This document shows positions 13,780 to 53,115 of a stretch of DNA of 64,000 nucleotides, one piece after another. The notes under the pieces were generated by a model. The model did no database searches and was not told where the DNA came from. It saw only the letters and a program-made list of their open reading frames with translations. A program made the translations under genes and the position numbers. The DNA is from an uncultured Actinomycetota bacterium (GTDB lineage: Bacteria; Actinomycetota; Actinomycetes; JAHEKZ01). The stretch covers positions 321,864 through 385,863 of the forward strand of contig CAWGPZ010000006.1 in NCBI GenBank assembly GCA_963824605.1, read 5' to 3'. The first letter of the stretch is position 1, and every line of letters begins with the position of its first letter.

Positions 13780-15450
13780 ATGGTGGGGCAGGTGGGCGAC
13801 GATGCCGCTCGCGGCGTCGCGCGACAATCACGCGCGCGCAGCGAGGCACGACTGCGTGCGCTCAGCGATGTCGGTCGAGCCGGAGTCGGCCTGCCCAAGC
13901 AGCAGGCGACCAGGCACATCGTGCTGGCCGCCATGCGAGCCAGCGAGGCCGACTCGGCTTCGCTGGGAGTGTGGATGCCTGAGCGCCAGGTCTTGCGGGC
14001 TGTGCTCAACGTGGGTGACCTCGCCCCCTGGGAGGACGAGGAGCCCGAGGACGAGGTCTACGAGGCAGACCAGAGCACCTGGCTGGCAGGTATGGCGGAC
14101 GGGGCCCTTGGAGCAGTTCTCAGCCTCGAGAACCCCGCGATCAGCGACGACGACCGCCTGTATCTCCATGAGCTCGGGAAGGAGAGCTCGATCAGCGTTC
14201 CTCTGCTCTACGCCGGTGAGTGGTGGGGCGAGCTGTTCGTTGCCAGGAGCGCCGCCCGCCCTTCCTTCGTCGAGGCGGACCTCGACTGGGTCTCGGCCGT
14301 GGCGGCCCAGGTGAGTGCCGCGCTCGAAAGCGTCGATCACGCTGCCAGTGTCGAGCAGCTCGCCCAGACCGACTCGATGACTGGCCTTGCCAACCGCCGC
14401 GCACTCGACCGCTGGCTCGACGACGCCATGGTTCAGTGGCGCGATCATCACGTGCCGATCGGGCTGGCGGTGATCGACCTCAACGGGTTGAAGCGGATCA
14501 ACGATGACCAGGGCCACGATGCGGGCGACCGGGTGCTCCGGCAGCTCGCGCACATCCTGTTCGACGCGTCCCGGGGATTTCAGCACTCCATGACGGCCCG
14601 CCTGGGCGGAGACGAGTTCTGCGTCGCGGTGAGCGGCCAGGACGCCGATGAGCTGGTGGACGTAGCAGCTGTGGCGTGTCAGTCCGGTTGGGACCTTCTT
14701 CCGCACGGACTCGCGTGCGGCGTGGTGGTGACCAGCGACGCCGTTGGCCCCGTCGAGCAACCAGCTCGTCTGCTGCGACTGGCCGACGCCGCCCAGTATC
14801 GCGCCAAGCGACTGCATTCCCGGATCCCCGTCGTCTCCGGCCTGCCGTTGCCTGAAGAGCTTGCCGTGTCGCTGACCGACGAGGAGGAGGAGGAGGCGGT
14901 GGTCTCCGACCGGCGCCTGTTTCGCGGGCGTGACGTCGCCAGTCTGGGGCAGCTCACCGATGGGGCGCTCAGAGCGCTCGACCAGGCCAACGAGGAGGCA
15001 CCCCGCAGCAGACTGGGGATGGTCGCCGACCTCTTCACCCATCACGTCGACGGACTCGGGTGGTGGCTGTCGCTGCAGACACGGGGGGCCGATTCGCTGC
15101 GCACGGTCGACTTCTCGCTCTACCGGCGTCCGCCCGGACTGGAGGCCGAGGAGGTGGGTATCGAGGCCAGCGGTGAGTTCGCTCTCGTCAACTATCCGGA
15201 GACCAGGCAGGCGTTGGCTGGGGGCGGCTACTTCGTGACGACCAGCGATATCACGGCAGATCCGGCCGAGCTCGCCATCCTGGACGGCATGGGGGCCACG
15301 GCAGTGGTAGCAGCCGGCGGCATCGACGAGTACGGGGACCGGTGGTTGATCGAGGTCTTCATGGATTCGCTCAGCTCATCGCCCCAAGAGCTTGCCGGCG
15401 TCCTTCGACTGATCGTGTTGGCCGCCCTGCATCCGGTGAGGGCCGACTAG
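13780..15450 (+). CDS. Diguanylate cyclase with GAF-like N-terminal domain, GGDEF domain and a ~190-aa C-terminal domain (paralogue 1).
   Basis: TDSMTGLANRRALD, VIDLNGLKRINDDQGHDAGDRVL and RLGGDEFCVAV motifs. Start trimmed to ATG 13780 (GGGAG SD 11 nt upstream), because the upstream part of the ORF overlaps accD. Confidence 0.75.
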   Translation: MVGQVGDDAARGVARQSRARSEARLRALSDVGRAGVGLPKQQATRHIVLAAMRASEADSASLGVWMPERQVLRAVLNVGDLAPWEDEEPEDEVYEADQSTWLAGMADGALGAVLSLENPAISDDDRLYLHELGKESSISVPLLYAGEWWGELFVARSAARPSFVEADLDWVSAVAAQVSAALESVDHAASVEQLAQTDSMTGLANRRALDRWLDDAMVQWRDHHVPIGLAVIDLNGLKRINDDQGHDAGDRVLRQLAHILFDASRGFQHSMTARLGGDEFCVAVSGQDADELVDVAAVACQSGWDLLPHGLACGVVVTSDAVGPVEQPARLLRLADAAQYRAKRLHSRIPVVSGLPLPEELAVSLTDEEEEEAVVSDRRLFRGRDVASLGQLTDGALRALDQANEEAPRSRLGMVADLFTHHVDGLGWWLSLQTRGADSLRTVDFSLYRRPPGLEAEEVGIEASGEFALVNYPETRQALAGGGYFVTTSDITADPAELAILDGMGATAVVAAGGIDEYGDRWLIEVFMDSLSSSPQELAGVLRLIVLAALHPVRAD

Positions 15451-18787: not shown

Positions 18788-19459
18788 GTGACCATCGTGC
18801 TGTTGGCTGAAGACGACGACGCCATCAGCGAGCCGCTTTCCCGGGCTTTGCGGCGGCAGGGGTACGACGTCGAGGTCGCTGAAACGGGTGCGGAGGCGTT
18901 GAAAGGAGCGCGGGGCAGTGACCTGCTCCTGCTCGATCTGGGTCTGCCGGGCCTCGATGGGCTCGATGTCTGCCGCGCGCTTCGGGCCGAGGGGTCCCCC
19001 ATCCCGGTCCTGATGCTGACTGCCCGCACGTCCGAGATCGACGCAATCGTCGGTCTCGATGCGGGGGCCGACGACTACGTGGCCAAACCGTTCCGCACCG
19101 CTGAGCTGATGGCGCGCATCCGAGCGTTGCTGAGGCGTGGTCAGGGTGAGTCGGAGGTTCTCTACGGTCAAGACCTGCGCATCGACGTGGGGGCGCGACA
19201 GGTCTGGCAAGGAGAGCGTGCGGTGGATCTATCGAGTCGGCAGTTCGAGCTGCTGGCCTACCTGGTGCGCCGACAGGGTGACGTTGTCGGCCGTGAAGAA
19301 CTGATGCGTCGGGTGTGGCAAACCACCTGGATCGGGTCGACCAAGACCGTGGACATGCATGTCTCATGGTTGCGTCGTGCTCTGGGCGATGGTGGCGCCT
19401 CAGCGTCGCGCTACATCGCCACCGTCCGTGGTGTCGGCTTCCGTTTCGAGGAAGGTTGA
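18788..19459 (+). CDS. OmpR-family response regulator.
   Basis: Receiver domain (LLAEDDD...LLLLDLGLPGLDG...MLTAR) plus winged-helix output (TVRGVGFRF). Confidence 0.85.
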   Translation: MTIVLLAEDDDAISEPLSRALRRQGYDVEVAETGAEALKGARGSDLLLLDLGLPGLDGLDVCRALRAEGSPIPVLMLTARTSEIDAIVGLDAGADDYVAKPFRTAELMARIRALLRRGQGESEVLYGQDLRIDVGARQVWQGERAVDLSSRQFELLAYLVRRQGDVVGREELMRRVWQTTWIGSTKTVDMHVSWLRRALGDGGASASRYIATVRGVGFRFEEG

Positions 19460-19461
19460 TC

Positions 19462-20753
19462 GTGCGGCGTCGATTCCTTCGGGCAACCTTCGGCGTGAGC
19501 GTCTCCATGGTGGTTCTGATGACACTCGCCATGCTCTGGGGGGATTGGACGGGTACCAGGGCGAACATCCAGCGGCAGCTCGGCGCCCAGGCAGACGATG
19601 TCGCAGGCAGCTGCACGAATGGGGGCACACTCAGGGCGAAGTCACCGCTGCCGACCTGCAGCAAATCGTGCCGTTCAATCATCGACTCGAGCTCACCACT
19701 GTCTCCGGCACCGAGCTGGCGGCCGGCAGTTCGACGACGACGGGTCCCTCCGTTCGAACGCACGGTCGACGATGTCGGGGTCATGCGCCTGATCGACACG
19801 AGTGGAACGCTTAGCCGAAACCACCTGGTCGCCACAATCACGATCGTCTTGATCGGGCTGGTGCTCGCCGTCGTGGCGGTCGCCGTGTCGATCCGCACGT
19901 CGCGCCGTCTCACCGAGCCCATCAACGAACTTGCGGCACATGCCGATCGGCTCGGATCTGGCGACCTGCGACCGTCCGACGTCCGCTATGGCATCTCTGA
20001 GCTCGACCGGCTTGCCGACTCGATGGACGCTTCGGTCGTTCGGGTAGCGGCGCTGCTGGCCGAGGAGCGCAGGGTGTCGATCGACGCGTCCCACCAGCTG
20101 AAGACCCCCTTGACCGCGCTGTCGCTACGCCTTGGAGGAACTGGCCGAGTGGCCAGATGACGGCGCCGTTCGAGCGGAGGCGCGCAAGGCGCTCGAACAG
20201 GTCGTCCGGCTGTCTGATGTTGTCGACGATCTACTGATCGACCGCCGATCGCCGAATGCCCGACGAGTGGCGATGCCGCTGAACCTGGTCATCGAGCAGC
20301 AGCTGAGCGAGTGGCGTCCGGCCTTCGATGCGGCTCATCGTCAGATTGTCGGCGACGGTGGACGTGCCGCCGACAACGACCGTGGATGCGGGTCCGGTCG
20401 GACAGGTGCTCGCGTCTTTGATCGAGAACAGCCTGCTGCACGGCGGTGGCACGACCACGATCGAGGCGCACCGTCCGCAGTCGGCCACCTGGATCGAGGT
20501 CTACGACGAAGGGGAGGGGGTGCCCGACGACGTGGCGCCTCGGGTGTTCGAGCGAGATGTCAGTGGCACCGGAGGAACCGGGTTGGGTCTTGCCGCGGCC
20601 CAGGACGCCGCCGTGTCAGTCGGAGGCAGGCTTGCGCTCGTCGGTCGCCGCCCCGCCCACTTCCGGTTCTTCCTCGACGGCAGGGAAGACCCAGCGTCGA
20701 TAGGACCAGAAACGAAAGAGAGTGCCGAGGCCGACCCCCACCACGTTGGCTGA
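19462..20753 (+). CDS. Sensor histidine kinase (TM, HAMP, HisKA, HATPase_c). Its reading frame is broken at least twice.
   Basis: GTG 19462 with a GAGGAAGG SD. The H-box SIDASHQLKTPLTALSLRL is in frame 1 (to 20160). LEELAEWPDD...LNLVIEQQLSEWRPAFDAAHRQI is in frame 2. N-box QVLASLIENSLLHGGG and G-box GTGGTGLGLAAAQDAA are in frame 0. Confidence 0.65.
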
Positions 20754-21143
20754 GATGTTGTCGGCCAGTGCAGAGTCGAGTCCGAGGACATAGCGCGAGA
20801 GCGCGAGCGGGACGAGCGTGATGGCCAACCCGATCGCGTTCAGGACGAAGTAGAGCGAGTACTCGCGCCAGAATCCACGTCGGCCCCGGTCCTTCCAGGT
20901 CCATTCGCGGTTCGCCTGGTAGGCGAAGACCGTCGCGACCACTGTCGACACGGTCTTGGCAGTCAGCGGTCTGTCGGCCAGGACCCCGGGGTCTCCGACA
21001 TGCACCAGGACGTTGAACAGTCCGACATCGATGACATAGGCGACGATGCCGACGGCACCGAAGCGGGAGAGTTCGCCTGCTCCGCGTCGTAGCCTGCGCC
21101 CGAAGGCGTTGACGGCCTCCGTCGGCGTCTTCATCGTCATCAC
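20616..21143 (-). CDS. GtrA-family membrane protein (polysaccharide-synthesis associated).
   Basis: 175 aa with four TM helices and an RFWSYRRWVF C-terminal motif. Overlaps the nrtR stop (ATGA). Confidence 0.65.
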   Translation of the reverse strand: MMTMKTPTEAVNAFGRRLRRGAGELSRFGAVGIVAYVIDVGLFNVLVHVGDPGVLADRPLTAKTVSTVVATVFAYQANREWTWKDRGRRGFWREYSLYFVLNAIGLAITLVPLALSRYVLGLDSALADNISANVVGVGLGTLFRFWSYRRWVFPAVEEEPEVGGAATDERKPASD

Positions 21144-21883
21144 CCGGTGAGGGTACGGGGTGGATCGGGTGGGCGAAGGACCGCAAACTGGTCGGTGACC
21201 TCGATCTGCCGTGCTCTGAACCGATACTGAGCGGCCGGGCGCCCTCCTGAACGTCCGGGCGCAGAGAAGGTGCCGGTCTCGACGATCTGCTGCCGGCGCA
21301 ACAGGATGCGCTTCAGGTTGGTGGTGGAGACGTCGTGTCCGAGGGCGGCTTGGTAGACCGCCTGGAGCTCAGAGGCGGTGAACGCAGCTGGCGCCAGGGC
21401 GAAGCCAAGGTTGGTGTAGCAGAGCTTTGCGCGTAGCCGCCGGACGCCGCTCGCAGTGATCGATGAATGGTCGAACGCCATCACGGGGAGCGCATCCACG
21501 CGGTGCCATGCGGCATCGGGGGGGATGACCGAGCGCTCGTCAGCCGGAACGAGTCCGAGGTACGCGGTGGCAAGCACCCGGCCACGCGGAGCCCGCTCGA
21601 GGTCACTGCGGGTCTCGAGCTGTTCGAGGTGTGCGAGATGCCGCACGTCGACCTTCTCGGCGAGCTGATGGGCGATCGACTGACCCAGGGTCTCGCTGTC
21701 GGCCAGCGGGCCGCCGGGCAGCGCCCATGAGCCGGCGGCCGGTCCTCGGTCGTGTTGCCAGAGCAACACGTGCAGCGCGGCGTTCCTGACCTGCAGCACG
21801 ACGGCGAGCACTTCGTGATTGACGCGCCTGCGAGGGGCGGAACCCCCGGCTCCGGTGGTCGCAGCTACGCCCTCGGTTGGCAC
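21140..21883 (-). CDS. nrtR: Nudix-related transcriptional regulator NrtR (Nudix domain plus C-terminal winged-helix domain).
   Basis: 247 aa. Nudix fold in the N-terminal half and a DNA-binding-like C-terminal half. Divergent from the nadABC genes, which is the classical NrtR genomic context. Confidence 0.7.
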
Positions 21884-21921
21884 AGTGGGACCTCCTCCAG
21901 GCGTGGTAGCGTGGATCTACG

Positions 21922-21948
21922 AGGTTATGGACTGTCAGACAATAACCT
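21922..21948 (+). promoter_or_regulatory. 27-bp imperfect palindrome AGGTTATGGACTGTCAGACAATAACCT, a candidate NrtR operator.
   Basis: 7-bp perfect arms AGGTTAT/ATAACCT; 21 of 27 positions are self-complementary. Lies in the nrtR-nadA intergenic region, about 60 bp upstream of nadA. Confidence 0.45.
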
Positions 21949-22009
21949 CGGGCTCACGGTAGCAGGGCGCGTGGACCGGTCCCGGGTTTCCAGCTGTTGG
22001 AGGTGCGGC

Positions 22010-22990
22010 GTGGCGGACACGCCTCAGGTCGATCCGGCCTATGCGGAAGAGGTTCGACGCCTCGCGGTTGAGCGCGATGCCCTCATCTTGGCCCACAACT
22101 ATCAGGTGCCCGAGATCCAAGAGGTGGCTCACCACGTCGGCGACTCGCTGCAGCTTGCGCGGTTGGCAGCAGCGAGCACTGCCTCCACGATCATCTTGTG
22201 CGGCGTTCACTTCATGGCCGAGTCGGCCAAGCTGCTTGCACCCGACCGCACCGTCCTGATCCCTGATCTGGGGGCGGGATGCTCGCTGGCCGACACCATC
22301 ACCGCCGATCAGCTGCGCGAGTGGAAGGCCGAGCATCCTGGTGCGGTCGTGGTCTCGTACGTCAACACCTCGGCAGCGGTCAAGGCCGAGACCGATATCT
22401 GCTGCACGTCGTCGAACGCCGTCGACGTCGTCAACTCGATCCCCGCCGATCGCGAGGTTCTCTTCCTGCCCGACCAGTTCCTGGGTGCGCATGTTCAGCG
22501 CGAGACCGGGCGCGCCAACATGCACATCTGGATGGGTGAGTGCCATGTGCACGCGGCGATCAGCGGTGACCAGCTGCTGAAACGGGTTCACGAGCTGCCC
22601 GATGCCGAGCTGCTGATCCACCCCGAGTGTGGGTGCGCCACCTCTGCGCTCTACCTGGCCGGCGAGGGCGTCGTTCCTGAGGCTCGGACACATATCCTGT
22701 CGACCGGCGGCATGCTGACCAAGGCCAGCCAGCTGGGGTCGTCAACCGTCCTGGTCGCCACCGAGACGGGCATGTTGCACCAGCTGCGCAAGGCGAACCC
22801 ACTGGCAGACTTCCAGGCAGTCAACCCCAAGGCTGACTGCAAGTACATGAAGATGATCACCCCGGAGAAGCTTGTGCGGTCCCTCCGCGAGAACGTCTTC
22901 GAGGTGACGGTCGACCCTGATGTTGCTGCTCGTGCACGGCGATCGGTCGAGCGCATGGTAGAGCTCGGCGGGGCCCCGGTCCCCGCGTGA
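22010..22990 (+). CDS. nadA: Quinolinate synthase.
   Basis: [23 protein letters not shown] and HPECGC motifs. GTG 22010 is preceded by GGAGG. ORF-track start 21752 would run across the operator. Confidence 0.85.
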
Positions 22991-24645
22991 CCCGTGTGGT
23001 GCCTGGGTTGCTCGGGCCCTTGCCGCGTCTGCCGTTGACACCGACCGCTGAGCGTCGCGCGGACGTCGTCGTGGTCGGCTCGGGTGCCGCGGGGGCAACG
23101 GCGGCTCGCGGCATTGCCCGTTCAGGGCGTCGGGTCCTCGTGGTCACCAAGTCGAGCTTGGGGGCGGGATCGACGACGTGGGCCCAGGGTGGCTTGGCCG
23201 CTGTCCTGGACGCCGCCGACGACTCATGGGACGAGCACGTGGCTGACACGTTGACGGCGGGGGCGGGTCTGTCGGATCAGGTAGTCGTCGAGCAGCTCGT
23301 CCGGCAGGCGCCGTCCGCCGTTCAGGAGCTGATCGACCTGGGCGCCGAGTTCGACCGTGATCTGGCGGGTCGCCTCGCGCTGGCCCGCGAGGGAGGGCAC
23401 CAGCGACGACGCATCGTCCACGCAGGGGGAGACGCCACCGGGGCCGAGGTGCAGCGGACGCTCGATGGTTCACTCCGCGCACTTGGCGTCGAGGTGCAGG
23501 AGCGCAGCATCGCCATCGACGTCGTCACGGACGCCGACGGACGGGTCGCTGGGGTGCTCATCGCCCATGTCGACGAGGGCGGAGCCATCTCCGATGCCAC
23601 TTTGGTGCAGACCTCGGCCGTGATCGTGGCTACCGGAGGTCTGGGTCAGGCGTTCGCCGTCACGACCAACCCCCCGGAGTCGACGGGTGACGGACTCGCG
23701 CTCGCTTGGCGGGCGGGCGCGGCCGTTGCTGATGTCGAGTTCGTGCAGTTTCACCCGACGGCCTTCTGGCAACCGGGCTCCAGCGGCCAGCAGCTGCTCG
23801 TCTCAGAGGCGTTACGCGGTGAGGGCGCGACATTGGTCGATGGCGCCGGGCTCTCGGTGATGGACGGCGTTCATCCGCTCGGTGACCTTGCCCCCCGGGA
23901 TGTCGTTGCCACCGCGATCGCGCTGCGGATGCGCGAGGCCCCTGGTGGGATCAGTGACCATGTCTTTCTTGATGCGACGTCGATGGGTCCGGCCGTTGCT
24001 GAACGGTTTCCGACGATCGTCGCCAGATGCCGTGCGGCGGGGATTGACCCCGTGAACGACCCCATACCGGTGGCACCGGCTGCGCACTTCGCCTGTGGCG
24101 GCGTCCGGGCTCAGCTCGATGGAACAACCTCGGTGCCCGGGCTCTTCGCTGTCGGCGAGGTGGCCGCCACCGGTATCCATGGGGCCAACCGACTTGCTTC
24201 CAACGGTGTCACCGAAGGGCTCGTGGCGGGGCACCTGGTCGCCACCGCGCTGGCCAAGGAGCTGCCACAGAGCGGCCCTCCCGTGCCGGGCGACCCTCGT
24301 CTCGGCGTGGCCCGTTCGCTTGATCGAGACGACCTGGCGCTGGCGATGAGTCGTTGGGTCGGGCCGCTACGTGATGCGGCGGGTTTGGCGTCTGCGTGGT
24401 CGGAGGTCACCGCCCTCGACGAGCACTCGACGCTCGGCTCACTCGCCGACGTCGAGGCGACCAACCTGAGAGCTGTCTCCGAGCTGATCGTCCGTGCCGC
24501 AGTGATGCGAGAGGAGAGTCGGGGAAGCCATCGGCGGCGTGACTTCACCCAGCCCAGCGATCGGTGGCGTCACCGCATCGTCCAACGCTGGGACGGGACT
24601 TCCGTGCTCACCTCGGCTGAGCCAGTGGGAGAGGAGAAGCGGTGA
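22987..24645 (+). CDS. nadB: L-aspartate oxidase.
   Basis: [13 protein letters not shown] motif and succinate dehydrogenase/fumarate reductase flavoprotein-like architecture. GTG overlaps the nadA stop (GTGA). Confidence 0.85.
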
Positions 24646-25571
24646 CCTATCACGCTCTTTCGCCGCAGACCGCGGAGCTGCTTGAGGCCGCGGGCCTCGA
24701 CGTCGACTTGGTGCTGAGAATCGTCACCGCCGCGCTGGACGAAGACCTGGCCTATGGTCCTGACGTCACGACCTCAGCGACCGTGCCGGAGGACCAGTGG
24801 GTCGCCGCCACCATCAGTGCCCGCGGGACCGGCGTGGTGGCCGGGGTGCCCGTCGCGGTCGCCGCGCTCGATCTCGTCACGGGCCCGGGCAGCTGGCGCT
24901 TGCTCTCGCACGCGTGGGACGGGTCGAGGGTGCATCCCGGTGACGCTGTGGTGGCGCTGGAGGCGCAGACGCGCGGCCTCCTGACCGCCGAGCGCACCGC
25001 ACTCAACTTCTTGGGTCATCTGTCCGGGGTGGCGACGACCACCGCGGAGTGGGCGAAGGCGGTGAGCCCGGCGCAGGTGCGCGACACACGCAAGACCATT
25101 CCCGGCCTACGGGTGCTCGACAAGTACGCCGTTCGCTGCGGTGGCGGTGTCAACCACCGCATGGGCCTCGGTGATGCTGCCTTGGTCAAGGACAACCATG
25201 TCGTGGCCGCCGGCGGCGTCCGCGAGGCGGTGGAGGCGGTTCGGGCAGCCGCTCCATCGATCGAGCTTGAGGTCGAGTGCGACGACGTCGCGCAGGTCAG
25301 CGAGGCCATTGCCGCGGGGGCTGCCCTGATCCTGCTCGACAACATGAGCCTCGATCAGATGAGGGAGGGCGTGGCTCTCGGAGATCGAGCATCCGAGAAC
25401 GTCAGGTTCGAGGCGTCCGGGGGGCTCACGCTGGACACGGCAGCGGCTGTCGCGGCGACCGGCGTCGACTTCGTCGCCGTGGGAGCGCTGACGCACTCGG
25501 CCGCCGTCCTCGACCTCGGTCTCGATGTGCATCGGGTCATCGAAGGCTCGGTAGGGTCATCGCGTGACTGA
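24642..25571 (+). CDS. nadC: Nicotinate-nucleotide pyrophosphorylase (quinolinate phosphoribosyltransferase).
   Basis: QPRTase fold motifs (KDNH, LLDNM). GTGA overlap with nadB. Confidence 0.85.
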   Translation: MTYHALSPQTAELLEAAGLDVDLVLRIVTAALDEDLAYGPDVTTSATVPEDQWVAATISARGTGVVAGVPVAVAALDLVTGPGSWRLLSHAWDGSRVHPGDAVVALEAQTRGLLTAERTALNFLGHLSGVATTTAEWAKAVSPAQVRDTRKTIPGLRVLDKYAVRCGGGVNHRMGLGDAALVKDNHVVAAGGVREAVEAVRAAAPSIELEVECDDVAQVSEAIAAGAALILLDNMSLDQMREGVALGDRASENVRFEASGGLTLDTAAAVAATGVDFVAVGALTHSAAVLDLGLDVHRVIEGSVGSSRD

Positions 25572-26757
25572 GGGCTCCCCGACATCTGCTCCCCGTGCAC
25601 CGTTGCCCAACGGGCCTGCAGACTTCCCAGTGGTGGGAGTCGTGGGCGGTGGTCAGCTGGCCCGGATGATGCAGCAGCCGGCGATCGCCCTGGGCGTCCA
25701 GCTCCGGCTGTTGGCCGACTCACCCGATGACAGCGCCGCCCAGGTCATTGCCGACACTGTCATCGGCGACTTCCGCGACCTCGACACGTTGCGCGCCTTC
25801 GCGCACGGCTGTTCGGTCATCACGTTCGACCATGAGCACGTACCCACTGAGCACTTGCGAGCGTTGGTCCGCGACGGCGTCGTCGTGCGACCTGGTCCGG
25901 ACGCATTGGTGTTCGCCCAGGACAAGGGCCTGATGCGCGAAAGGCTGGCGGCTCTGGGTGCGCCACTTCCACGCTGGCTGCCCGTGTCGTCCGTCGACGA
26001 TGTTCGTGCCTTCGCCGCCGGCTCCGGCTACCCCCTGGTGATCAAGGCCACGCGCGGGGGCTACGACGGCAAGGGCGTTTGGGTGGTGAGCAGCGAACAA
26101 GAGGCCGGCGAGGTGCTGTCGCACGACCAGGTGCCTGGTTTCATCGTCGAGGAACTCGTGGGCTACACGCGTGAGCTGTCGGCCATGGTGGCCCGCAGCC
26201 CGAGCGGGCAAGCCGTTGCCTACCCCGTTGTCGAGACGGTGCAGCGCGATGGCATCTGTCACGAGGTGTACGCGCCAGCTCCAGGCATTGCAGAGGACCA
26301 CGCGGTTGCCGCGCAACAGATCGCCCTTCGAATCGCCGGTGAGCTCGACGTGGTCGGCATGATGGCCGTCGAGCTGTTCGACACCCCAGCCGGTGTGCTG
26401 GTGAATGAGCTGGCGATGCGTCCCCACAACTCCGGGCACTGGGGCATCGACGGTGCCGTCACGAGTCAGTTCGAGAACCACCTGCGCGCGGTTCTCGACC
26501 TCCCCCTGGGCGACCCTTCGACAACAGCGCCCTGCACGGTCATGGTCAACCTGTTGGGGGGCGAGCTTGGTGACCTCTACCCGGCCTACCTCCACTGCAT
26601 GGCCCGCGATCCCGGAATGAAGTTCCACATGTACGGCAAGACAGTCAAGCCGGGGCGCAAGATCGGGCACGTGACTGCCATCGGGACGGATCTGTCCGAT
26701 CTGCTGGAACGGACCCGCCACGCCGTGGCGTACCTGAGAGGTGACATCGATGAGTAG
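25564..26757 (+). CDS. purK: N5-carboxyaminoimidazole ribonucleotide synthase.
   Basis: ATP-grasp domain and PurK N-terminus ([14 protein letters not shown]). Overlaps the nadC end by 8 nt. Confidence 0.85.
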
Positions 26758-27280
26758 TGCCGACGAGAGCCCAGTGATCAGCATCGTGATGGGCAGTGAC
26801 TCTGACTGGCCGGTCATGGAATCGGCCGCGGAGGCGCTGGAGGAGTTCGGAATCGGCTACACCGTTGATGTCGTCTCTGCCCACCGCACGCCCTTCGACA
26901 TGTTGGAGTTCGGACGTTCGGCAGCCTCCCTCGGGCGGAAGGTCATCATTGCCGGCGCCGGTGGTGCCGCTCACCTGCCGGGAATGCTGGCCTCGGTCAC
27001 GCCGCTTCCAGTGATCGGTGTTCCCGTGCCTTTGGCGCGCCTCGACGGCCTCGACTCGCTTCTGTCGATCGTGCAGATGCCCGGCGGCGTGCCCGTCGCC
27101 ACGGTGGCAATCGGCAATGCGCGGAACGCCGCTCTCCTGGCGGTGCGCATCCTGGCGGTGGCCGACAGCCACCTGCAGGAGCAGATGGTGGCGTTCCAGC
27201 AACGCATGGCCGACGAGTCATCGGCCAAGGGAGACGCGCTCCGTCGTCGTCGGTCGGGCGACGTGGGATTCACGGCCTAG
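26741..27280 (+). CDS. purE: N5-CAIR mutase.
   Basis: [12 protein letters not shown] and [12 protein letters not shown] PurE motifs. Confidence 0.85.
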
Positions 27281-52460: not shown

Positions 52461-53115
52461 CGGCCGGCTGGCCTACACGGTCCTTCGTGACAGAGACGCC
52501 ACATGGGGCGACGTCGAGAACGCGCCTCCCGCCGACCGGCTCCTCTCGATGGACCTGGTGGTCTCCGACCTGGCGTCCGGGCGGGGCTTTGCTCCCGTCG
52601 ATGAGCTGGTGGCTCGTGGCGTGCAGTATGTCCTTGCGGTTCCACCCGTTGACGCGGATCTGGAGGTCGCCCTCGACTCCGCCCCTGGCCTGCTGAGGAT
52701 CGCCAACCCAGGCGACGCCTCGCTGTGGCGCGTCGAGCTGGACGCGGGCCGCGTCCAGCTGTTGGGCGCCGATGACCAGAGAGAGGTGCTGCCCTCGGAG
52801 GTAGCGGGCGACCCGTCGTCAGCGCGGGTTGAGGTGCCCGGGGCAGAAGGCGACCGACTGCTGGAGCTCGCCGAGCTCGCCGACGAGGGGTGGGTCGGCA
52901 CCGCCACCTCCCAGGACCAGACCCGCGAGCTGCCTGTCGGTGCAGCAACGGAGTGGGGACAGCGCTTTGTGGCCGGCGCCGTGGCCGCCGAGGTGTCGAT
53001 GGTGGTCGAGAATCCGTGGCGTCGCGCCTTGCTGTGGAGTCAGCTGGTTCTTGTTGTGCTCCTCGTGCTCGTTGCTCTGCCTGGCAGGTCCCGCCGAGAC
53101 GAGGAGGCGGTGTGA
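52171..53115 (+). CDS. Probable C-terminal continuation of the GT2 membrane protein in the +1 frame (frameshift near 52290), or alternatively a separate gene.
   Basis: After the Arg/Trp-rich first 30 codons, this frame reads as a TM helix plus a periplasmic domain and ends in a TM anchor LLWSQLVLVVLLVLVALPG. The upstream frame ends in an Arg-rich tail. Confidence 0.4.
   Translation: MARCWSWRWLRAWSRWRPRRAAVASGCSEPPSHGASPLFAAVATLAVLSPLVWGISWVDRGATDPLDRGSANPLPAFVRAQSELPEQIRTLVLEPADGRLAYTVLRDRDATWGDVENAPPADRLLSMDLVVSDLASGRGFAPVDELVARGVQYVLAVPPVDADLEVALDSAPGLLRIANPGDASLWRVELDAGRVQLLGADDQREVLPSEVAGDPSSARVEVPGAEGDRLLELAELADEGWVGTATSQDQTRELPVGAATEWGQRFVAGAVAAEVSMVVENPWRRALLWSQLVLVVLLVLVALPGRSRRDEEAV

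Follow-up and report, generated by a model that had tools for sequence, protein, structure and literature searches.

We analysed the region between two divergently transcribed units in a 64-kb stretch of DNA (64,000 nucleotides of contig CAWGPZ010000006.1; hereafter the window) from an uncultured Actinomycetota bacterium. On the minus strand lies nrtR (21140-21883), which starts with GTG and encodes a protein of 247 aa with matches to the Pfam families PF21906 (NrtR_WHD) and PF00293 (NUDIX). On the plus strand, and together spanning 22010-25571, are the genes for de novo NAD synthesis: nadA (22010-22990, GTG start), encoding quinolinate synthase (Pfam PF02445, E 3.6e-109); nadB (22987-24645), encoding L-aspartate oxidase (Pfam FAD_binding_2 and Succ_DH_flav_C); and nadC (24642-25571), encoding quinolinate phosphoribosyltransferase (Pfam QRPTase_N and QRPTase_C). 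The GTG start of nadB overlaps the stop codon of nadA, and that of nadC the stop codon of nadB, in both cases as GTGA. An earlier note, made from the letters of this DNA, had described a Nudix plus winged-helix gene divergent from nadA-nadB-nadC, and these gene calls were confirmed by Pfam. The 126-bp intergenic region is flanked by nrtR on one side and nadA-nadB-nadC on the other, and contains the palindrome AGGTTATGGACTGTCAGACAATAACCT (21922-21948, no strand), which we annotate as an NrtR box (operator) from its sequence, symmetry, matrix score and conservation.

By its sequence, the window protein is a member of the NrtR family of Nudix-related transcriptional regulators. The winged helix, at residues 160-222, matched all 61 profile positions (1-61) of NrtR_WHD with 40.9 bits, where the cut-off is 27, and the Nudix-like domain matched NUDIX with 26.2 bits (cut-off 21.1; residues 27-136), while phmmer searches of the PDB gave near-full-length matches to two solved structures of the family, AraR (5bs6, E 9.2e-20, residues 33-227) and Shewanella NrtR (3gz5, E 1.5e-15, residues 27-221). 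The family assignment made in the earlier note is therefore upheld, both Pfam matches lying above their cut-offs. The protein also matches the NadQ winged helix, and its homologues number in the thousands. Shewanella oneidensis NrtR (PDB 3GZ5/3GZ6) and Bacteroides AraR (PDB 5BS6) share the Nudix-like plus winged-helix architecture of the window NrtR, but differ in their targets (prs-nadV and arabinose utilisation, respectively), their operator consensus and their effector, which is arabinose for AraR.

As read from the translation, the Nudix box of the window NrtR is degenerate (G58-x5-E64-x7-HQLAEKVDV, compared with REUxEExGU). In the NrtR of Mycobacterium smegmatis (MsNrtR), where the Nudix box is GX5EX7RQUXEKXDU, the catalytic REUxEE residues are replaced almost alike (GX5EX7HQLAEKVDV in the window). 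MsNrtR is without ADP-ribose hydrolase activity, yet responsive to ADP-ribose (PMC6800001), and the degenerate Nudix box of the window protein resembles that of this non-hydrolysing but ligand-binding regulator. The acetylated-lysine peptide of MsNrtR, LVAkLSYTNIGFALAPK, aligns to a 17-residue peptide of the window protein, K134 being equivalent to K153. With this peptide as anchor (offset 19, taken from the quoted peptide), the DNA-contact residues T169, N170, R173 and R196, which were mutated in MsNrtR, would correspond to T188, N189, R192 and R215. All four are invariant in an alignment of 20 homologues (A1) and conserved in an alignment of 80 loci.

The palindrome was read at exactly the positions given in the earlier note. 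It is centred on 21935, which places it 75 nt upstream of the GTG of nadA (22010), again as described there, and at a distance of 52 nt from that of nrtR. The perfect arms of 7 bp reported before are correct, and following the symmetry outward extends them to 9 bp over 31 nt (21920-21950; CGAGGTTAT...ATAACCTCG); our count of self-complementary positions in the 27-mer is 22 of 27 (11 of 13 mirrored pairs) rather than the 21 previously stated. Across the window, with its 67% G+C, only 3 of approximately 64,000 27-mers had at least 11 of 13 pairs, and among 31-nt palindromes the one at 21920-21950, with 13 of 15 pairs complementary, was the single best. Because so few 27-mers or 31-mers match its symmetry, a chance palindrome of such quality within an intergenic region of 126 bp is unlikely. 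A second inverted repeat in this region (I2) consists of the two opposed GGAGG-type ribosome-binding sites of nrtR and nadA: GGAGGAGG stands just 5' of the nrtR GTG (21891-21898, minus strand) and GGAGG at 21999-22003 precedes the nadA GTG, the Shine-Dalgarno sequence and start codon of nadA being conserved in an alignment of the window's clade. Elsewhere in the window, two GC-rich 27-nt palindromes, at 52735-52761 and 13940-13966 (GAGCTGGACGCGGGCCGCGTCCAGCTG and CCAGCGAGGCCGACTCGGCTTCGCTGG), have 12 of 13 pairs and exceed the NrtR box in symmetry.

Using the alignment of 20 homologues, we fetched 80 loci from the genomes of different species, with NrtR identities of 59-85%. These included Nocardiopsis, Blastococcus, Streptomonospora, Micromonosporaceae, metagenome-assembled genomes (MAGs) of Gaiellaceae and several MAGs classified as 'Actinomycetes' or Nanopelagicales. 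nadA was divergent from nrtR and within 500 nt of it at 66 of the 80 loci, and a site of the form GTTwTnnGnCTnnnAGnCnnwAAC was present in every one of these 66 intergenic regions. A position weight matrix built from 55 distinct orthologous sites, the window site excluded, gave the window site 36.4 bits, and 34.8 when read on the opposite strand; the next best score in the 64 kb was 9.7 bits, the background averaging -53, and the scan thus returned no second box within the window. When both strands of all 80 loci (771 kb) were scanned, each locus had one site above 22 bits (80/80), including the 15 loci outside the matrix training, and nothing else exceeded 12 bits save three weaker second sites, each at approximately 43 nt from the main site. 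A loose pattern search of the window (GGTTAT-N13-ATAACC with 3 mismatches) returned 7 matches where 2.7 were expected, all but the true site being GC-rich near-misses, and was superseded by the matrix scan. The earlier note had set beforehand, as its own test, whether related genomes keep the palindrome upstream of nadA; they do, in all of the divergent regions and at every nrtR locus. At the level of sequence comparison, this conservation excludes a chance origin of the palindrome.

The sites found in the 80-locus scan sit 5' of nrtR, with the exception of locus L080. There nrtR and nadA do not form a divergent pair, and the sole box, at 2141-2167, lies upstream of nadA and about 2 kb from nrtR; the site can therefore accompany the target gene instead of the regulator. 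The three weaker second boxes (16-22 bits) occur in distant Actinomycetota MAG loci (L040, 738/781; L053, 798/840; L060, 1700/1744) and suggest tandem operators in these lineages.

Among 70 distinct sites, GTT/AAC, G9 and CT-N3-AG were invariant. In the clade of the window, box positions 6 and 22 are A and T, giving GTTAT/ATAAC in both arms, whereas most other lineages have GTTTT/AAAAC; at several distant loci a single arm has the A form. The recognition helix reads TNLKRIL in the window's clade as opposed to TNLQ/RRVL, with no strict correlation with the type of box. K191 and I193 were considered as residues specifying the arm type and rejected: they mark the clade, but are also found in locus L009, which has GTTTT-type arms, and are confounded by phylogeny. 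No convincing determinant of GTTAT versus GTTTT was found in the recognition helix.

A scan of metagenomes for the exact clade-specific pattern GGTTATNGNCTNNNAGNCNATAACC gave 23 matches. Four were on contigs of 66-67% G+C, every one in the nrtR-nadA interval. The remaining 19 were on contigs of 31-52% G+C in which tblastn detected homologues of neither NrtR nor nadA; the site lay within an open reading frame (ORF) in 9 of the 13 low-G+C matches inspected, and all 19 were taken as unrelated or chance occurrences. Three contigs of low G+C (34-37%) carry near-perfect palindromes with a GT-N7-AC core, of the form GGTTATAGTCT(T/A)4AGACTATAACC (L084, 566-590; L088, 3-27; L094, 1537-1561), and no NrtR homologue was detected on the stretches fetched from them.

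We then compared the window site with published NrtR boxes, as the earlier note had proposed, on the basis of the consensus quoted in PMC6800001 and of our own matrix. In mycobacteria, Gao et al. (2019, eLife; PMC6800001) described a 23-bp palindrome, GTTTTCGA-N7-TCGAAAAC, between nrtR and nadABC, which is bound as double-stranded DNA by M. smegmatis NrtR (MSMEG_3198) in electrophoretic mobility shift assays (EMSA) and surface plasmon resonance. Deletion of nrtR in M. smegmatis de-repressed nrtR-lacZ approximately 10-fold and increased nadABC transcripts and NAD, and ADP-ribose released MsNrtR from DNA (PMC6800001). Written in the mycobacterial register, the window site is GTTATGGA-N7-ACAATAAC and equals the site seen in the M. 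smegmatis EMSA at 11 of 16 specified positions, which bears out the expected resemblance to an actinobacterial NrtR box. The differences fall at positions that are variable in the family matrix, and the sites of loci L057 (GTTTTCGACTATCAGACGAAAAC) and L039 equal the mycobacterial consensus almost exactly, forming a bridge to the window form. Because of this match and of such near-consensus sites, we regard the window site, judged by its letters, as a lineage variant of the mycobacterial NrtR box.

The divergent layout of nrtR and nadA-nadB-nadC and the register of the palindrome are also those of M. smegmatis. The window differs in having GTTAT/ATAAC rather than GTTTT/AAAAC arms (both arms, throughout the closest clade), in one imperfect inner half-site, in a gtrA gene attached to the nrtR cistron and in a box that, within the clade, stands between two facing putative extended -10 elements. 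A regulon of this layout, nrtR<#>nadA-nadB-nadC, was predicted as 'Actinobacteria-1b' by Rodionov et al. (2008, NAR; PMC2330246) for Mycobacterium, Nocardia, Corynebacterium diphtheriae and Thermobifida. The operon diagram of this group is the same as that of the window, de novo NAD synthesis is the target in both and the regulon likewise appears limited to a single locus, but the window's host belongs to an uncultured Actinomycetes or Nanopelagicales-like lineage outside that survey. A further actinobacterial relative is NdnR of Corynebacterium glutamicum (Actinobacteria-1a; Teramoto et al., 2012, as cited in PMC6800001), where the regulator is first in a co-directional nrtR-nadA-nadC-sufS operon. 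In the account given there, NdnR likewise belongs to the NrtR family and represses its own gene together with those for de novo NAD synthesis, but differs in that NAD acts as co-repressor and enhances its DNA binding, whereas ADP-ribose is the inducer of other NrtRs.

An intergenic alignment of 13 sequences of the window's clade showed, in addition to the two ribosome-binding sites, three blocks that are conserved: TGGTAGCGT to the left of the box, the box itself and ACGGTAGCA to its right, which reads TGCTACCGT on the minus strand. The left block (21904-21912, plus strand) ends 9 nt before the box and is predicted to be the extended -10 element of the nadA promoter, its TG.TA.CGT being invariant or nearly so in the 13 sequences. 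The right block (21956-21964, minus strand) ends 7 nt before the box and is predicted to be the extended -10 element of a promoter for nrtR, and with it gtrA. Both have the form TGnTAnnnT, which is the TANNNT/extended -10 consensus of actinobacteria. On the nadA-sense strand this element occurs 5-11 nt before the 27-mer at 77 of the 80 loci, where fewer than 1% per locus would be expected by chance (an estimate from base composition), and it is thus family-wide; in the nrtR sense, to the right of the box, it was found in 13 of 13 clade sequences and at just 8 of the 80 loci, so that the right-hand element appears, in the sequences compared, to be clade-specific. Allowing the usual spacing of 6-8 nt from a -10 element to the start site, transcription of nadA would begin at about 21918-21920 (near 21919) and that of nrtR at about 21948-21950 (near 21949). 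With starts at these positions the two promoters would face each other, giving transcripts with an overlap of about 30 nt. The presence of the left element at 77 loci would place the operator at the start of transcription and not 'upstream' of the promoter.

Taken as a whole, the palindrome is very likely to be the operator of the neighbouring NrtR, through which nadABC and nrtR would be repressed until a ligand releases the protein. This reading builds on what was observed, namely the domains of the regulator, the gene arrangement, the best palindrome of the window, the existence and specificity of the site in matrix scans, its conservation in the 80 loci and the flanking -10-like elements, and also on the published motif and layout and the equivalent DNA-contact residues. 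We envisage that an NrtR dimer, with an inactive Nudix-like sensor and a C-terminal winged helix, would bind the half-sites GTTAT-G-CT and AG-C-ATAAC. Lying between the facing extended -10 promoters, the site would cover approximately +1 to +30 of both the nadA-nadB-nadC and the nrtR-gtrA transcripts, such that a single bound dimer could block both promoters, and an occupied box would repress de novo NAD synthesis and nrtR itself. By analogy with characterised NrtR proteins, an NAD-derived ligand, most likely ADP-ribose, would bind the Nudix-like domain and take NrtR off the DNA. Binding, the direction of regulation, the effector, the start sites and the co-transcription of gtrA are what we infer here; repression of nadABC and auto-repression in particular are suggested by the position of the box relative to the -10 elements and by the genetics of M. 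smegmatis. The interpretation offered in the earlier note, an NrtR box that would repress nadABC and autoregulate nrtR, is supported by the conservation at all 80 loci and by the published motif.

Several points weigh against this interpretation. The GT-N7-AC core of the general NrtR motif, a palindromic operator of approximately 21 bp (Rodionov et al., 2008; PMC2330246), is only half present in the window, which has GA-N7-AC; in the subgroup matrix the core is G(0.97)[C/A]...[A/T/G]C(0.78), with G9 and C19 conserved and the inner T/A positions variable. A generic sigma-70 promoter and terminator scan of 20500-22100 gave 0 sites, a blank that is expected for such promoters and uninformative for high-G+C actinobacteria, and the -10 elements are predicted from conservation together with the actinobacterial consensus. 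Release of MsNrtR by ADP-ribose took a very high concentration (PMC6800001), and the effector could be NAD instead of ADP-ribose, as NdnR, in the description cited in PMC6800001, binds DNA better with NAD.

Directly downstream of nrtR is gtrA (20616-21143, minus strand), which encodes a small membrane protein of the GtrA family (Pfam PF04138, E 2e-24; positions 1-117 of the 117 of this GtrA/DPMS transmembrane domain). The earlier note had reported an ATGA overlap between the two genes. The overlap stands, but the junction (GGGTGATGACG) reads GTGA, the GTG with which gtrA starts (21143) overlapping the TGA that ends nrtR (21142-21140); an alternative ATG start at 21140 would leave an overlap of 1 nt (TGATG). 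The [G/A]TGA overlap is conserved in loci L001 and L003-L007, the ATGA form being that of the relatives L005 and L006. Since naive ORF picking is unreliable in high-G+C DNA, we sought gtrA neighbours by relaxed tblastn (E 0.01). Eleven close relatives, among them the metagenome contigs L082, L095 and L100, have gtrA immediately downstream of nrtR. In L009, the next outgroup, it is approximately 1.2 kb from nrtR, separated by an opposite-strand ORF of 446 aa whose sequence resembles that of an acyl-CoA dehydrogenase. Beyond these 12 closest loci, at the remaining 71, the search found no gtrA homologue within 5 kb of nrtR.

The description of gtrA as an unexpected operon partner therefore holds for the coupling of start and stop codons, but the pairing is confined to the closest clade and is broken in L009, so a role of gtrA in NAD metabolism is not indicated. 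We read it as clade-specific synteny that would place gtrA under the autoregulation of nrtR. Whether gtrA might be more than a passenger, a functional member of an NAD/ADP-ribose regulon that transports a precursor or links NAD status to envelope glycosylation, deserves a hearing: the start/stop overlap has been kept in the closest clade across 68-95% GtrA identity, the generic scan of 20500-22100 showed no terminator-like site between the two genes, and gtrA, if co-transcribed, falls under NrtR autoregulation. We nevertheless judge this unlikely, given that gtrA is not near nrtR at so many other loci and that the opposite-strand ORF of L009 shows the pairing to be breakable. GtrA-family proteins are linked to the flipping or translocation of polyprenyl-phosphate sugars and not to NAD metabolism (PMC7389260), and GtrA has 0 occurrences among the NrtR regulons of Rodionov et al. 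(2008; PMC2330246). The fuller scenario, in which the NrtR unit captured a translationally coupled gtrA and the operator was rebuilt between facing extended -10 promoters with overlapping transcripts, making gtrA responsive to NAD or ADP-ribose, seems to us similarly doubtful. If it were true, cofactor homeostasis would be linked to the translocation of polyprenyl-phosphate sugars or to envelope glycosylation or, alternatively, a GtrA-like protein would act in the transport of NAD precursors.

With the predicted start sites, the whole palindrome would be transcribed in both leaders, its outer 9 bp can pair in an RNA fold, and positions 6 and 22 co-change from T:A to A:T in the window's clade, all of which would suit an RNA-level hairpin in the 5' leader of nadA, nrtR or both (an attenuator, a processing site or a riboswitch-like element) rather than a protein-binding DNA site. 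The nadA leader, however, shows no gain in folding over shuffled sequence (z = 0.44), and a permissive cmscan of 21850-22060 against Rfam found no family at threshold, NAD riboswitches included, returning two microRNA models alone, whose 25 and 16 bits fell well short of their gathering scores of 70 and 80. Moreover, the conserved columns of the 70 distinct sites (GTT/AAC, G9 and CT/AG) are fixed in sequence, while several mirrored inner pairs mostly lack complementarity (positions 7/21, 29 of 70; 10/18, 18 of 70; 13/15, 24 of 70), a pattern that fits a dimeric protein site and does not fit a stem. The same motif is also bound as double-stranded DNA by M. smegmatis NrtR (PMC6800001), and we consider a hairpin function highly improbable. 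We give just as little credence to an operator for a different transcription factor encoded elsewhere, with NrtR binding another sequence: the window site does deviate from the general core in one half, but the site co-occurs with nrtR at all 80 loci, 14 of them without nadA as divergent neighbour, and so tracks the regulator gene (in L080, nadA), NrtR binds the orthologous site in mycobacteria (PMC6800001), and no other conserved palindrome appears in the intergenic footprint of the clade alignment.

Beyond the operator and the genes it adjoins, purK follows nadC directly on the plus strand (first in-frame start GTG 25564, an 8-nt overlap with the nadC stop; its start is uncertain, with alternative GTGs at 25630-25642), and purE (26741-27280, plus strand) comes after it. 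This position of purK is kept in the close clade (L003, L004, L006, L008, L009, L082 and L085). Because these same-strand genes directly follow nadC and the placement of purK is conserved, both purK and purE may be read through from the NrtR-controlled promoter. On the other side of the locus, downstream of an intact response regulator gene (18788-19459), a histidine kinase gene (19456-20753, plus strand) is broken across three reading frames. Metagenome contig L082 carries an intact orthologue (at least 433 aa); aligned with it, the window gene shows 88% DNA identity and six 1-nt gaps. Single-base insertions near 20133 and near 20347 are uncompensated, and the frame is shifted over about 19607-19753. 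The gene is either a decaying pseudogene or the product of local assembly indels, the neighbouring genes being intact. Taken to its first stop (20753), the kinase frame converges on gtrA with an overlap of the 3' ends of approximately 138 nt (20616-20753), and no terminator-like hairpin was seen between these convergent ends.

The arrangement of nrtR, its box and nadABC has already been described and tested in mycobacteria, and the window is an ordinary new example of it in an uncultured actinomycete, which leaves the understanding of NrtR itself unchanged. What the analysis supplies is a family-wide site matrix covering 70 distinct sites, together with modest additions for the modelling of actinobacterial regulons: the placement of the -10 element on the nadA strand and, for the window's clade, the arm variant, the predicted second facing promoter and the coupled gtrA. 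The mycobacterial-type NrtR circuit, with one operator serving divergent nrtR and nadABC, would thus extend unchanged into uncultured freshwater and soil lineages of actinomycetes.

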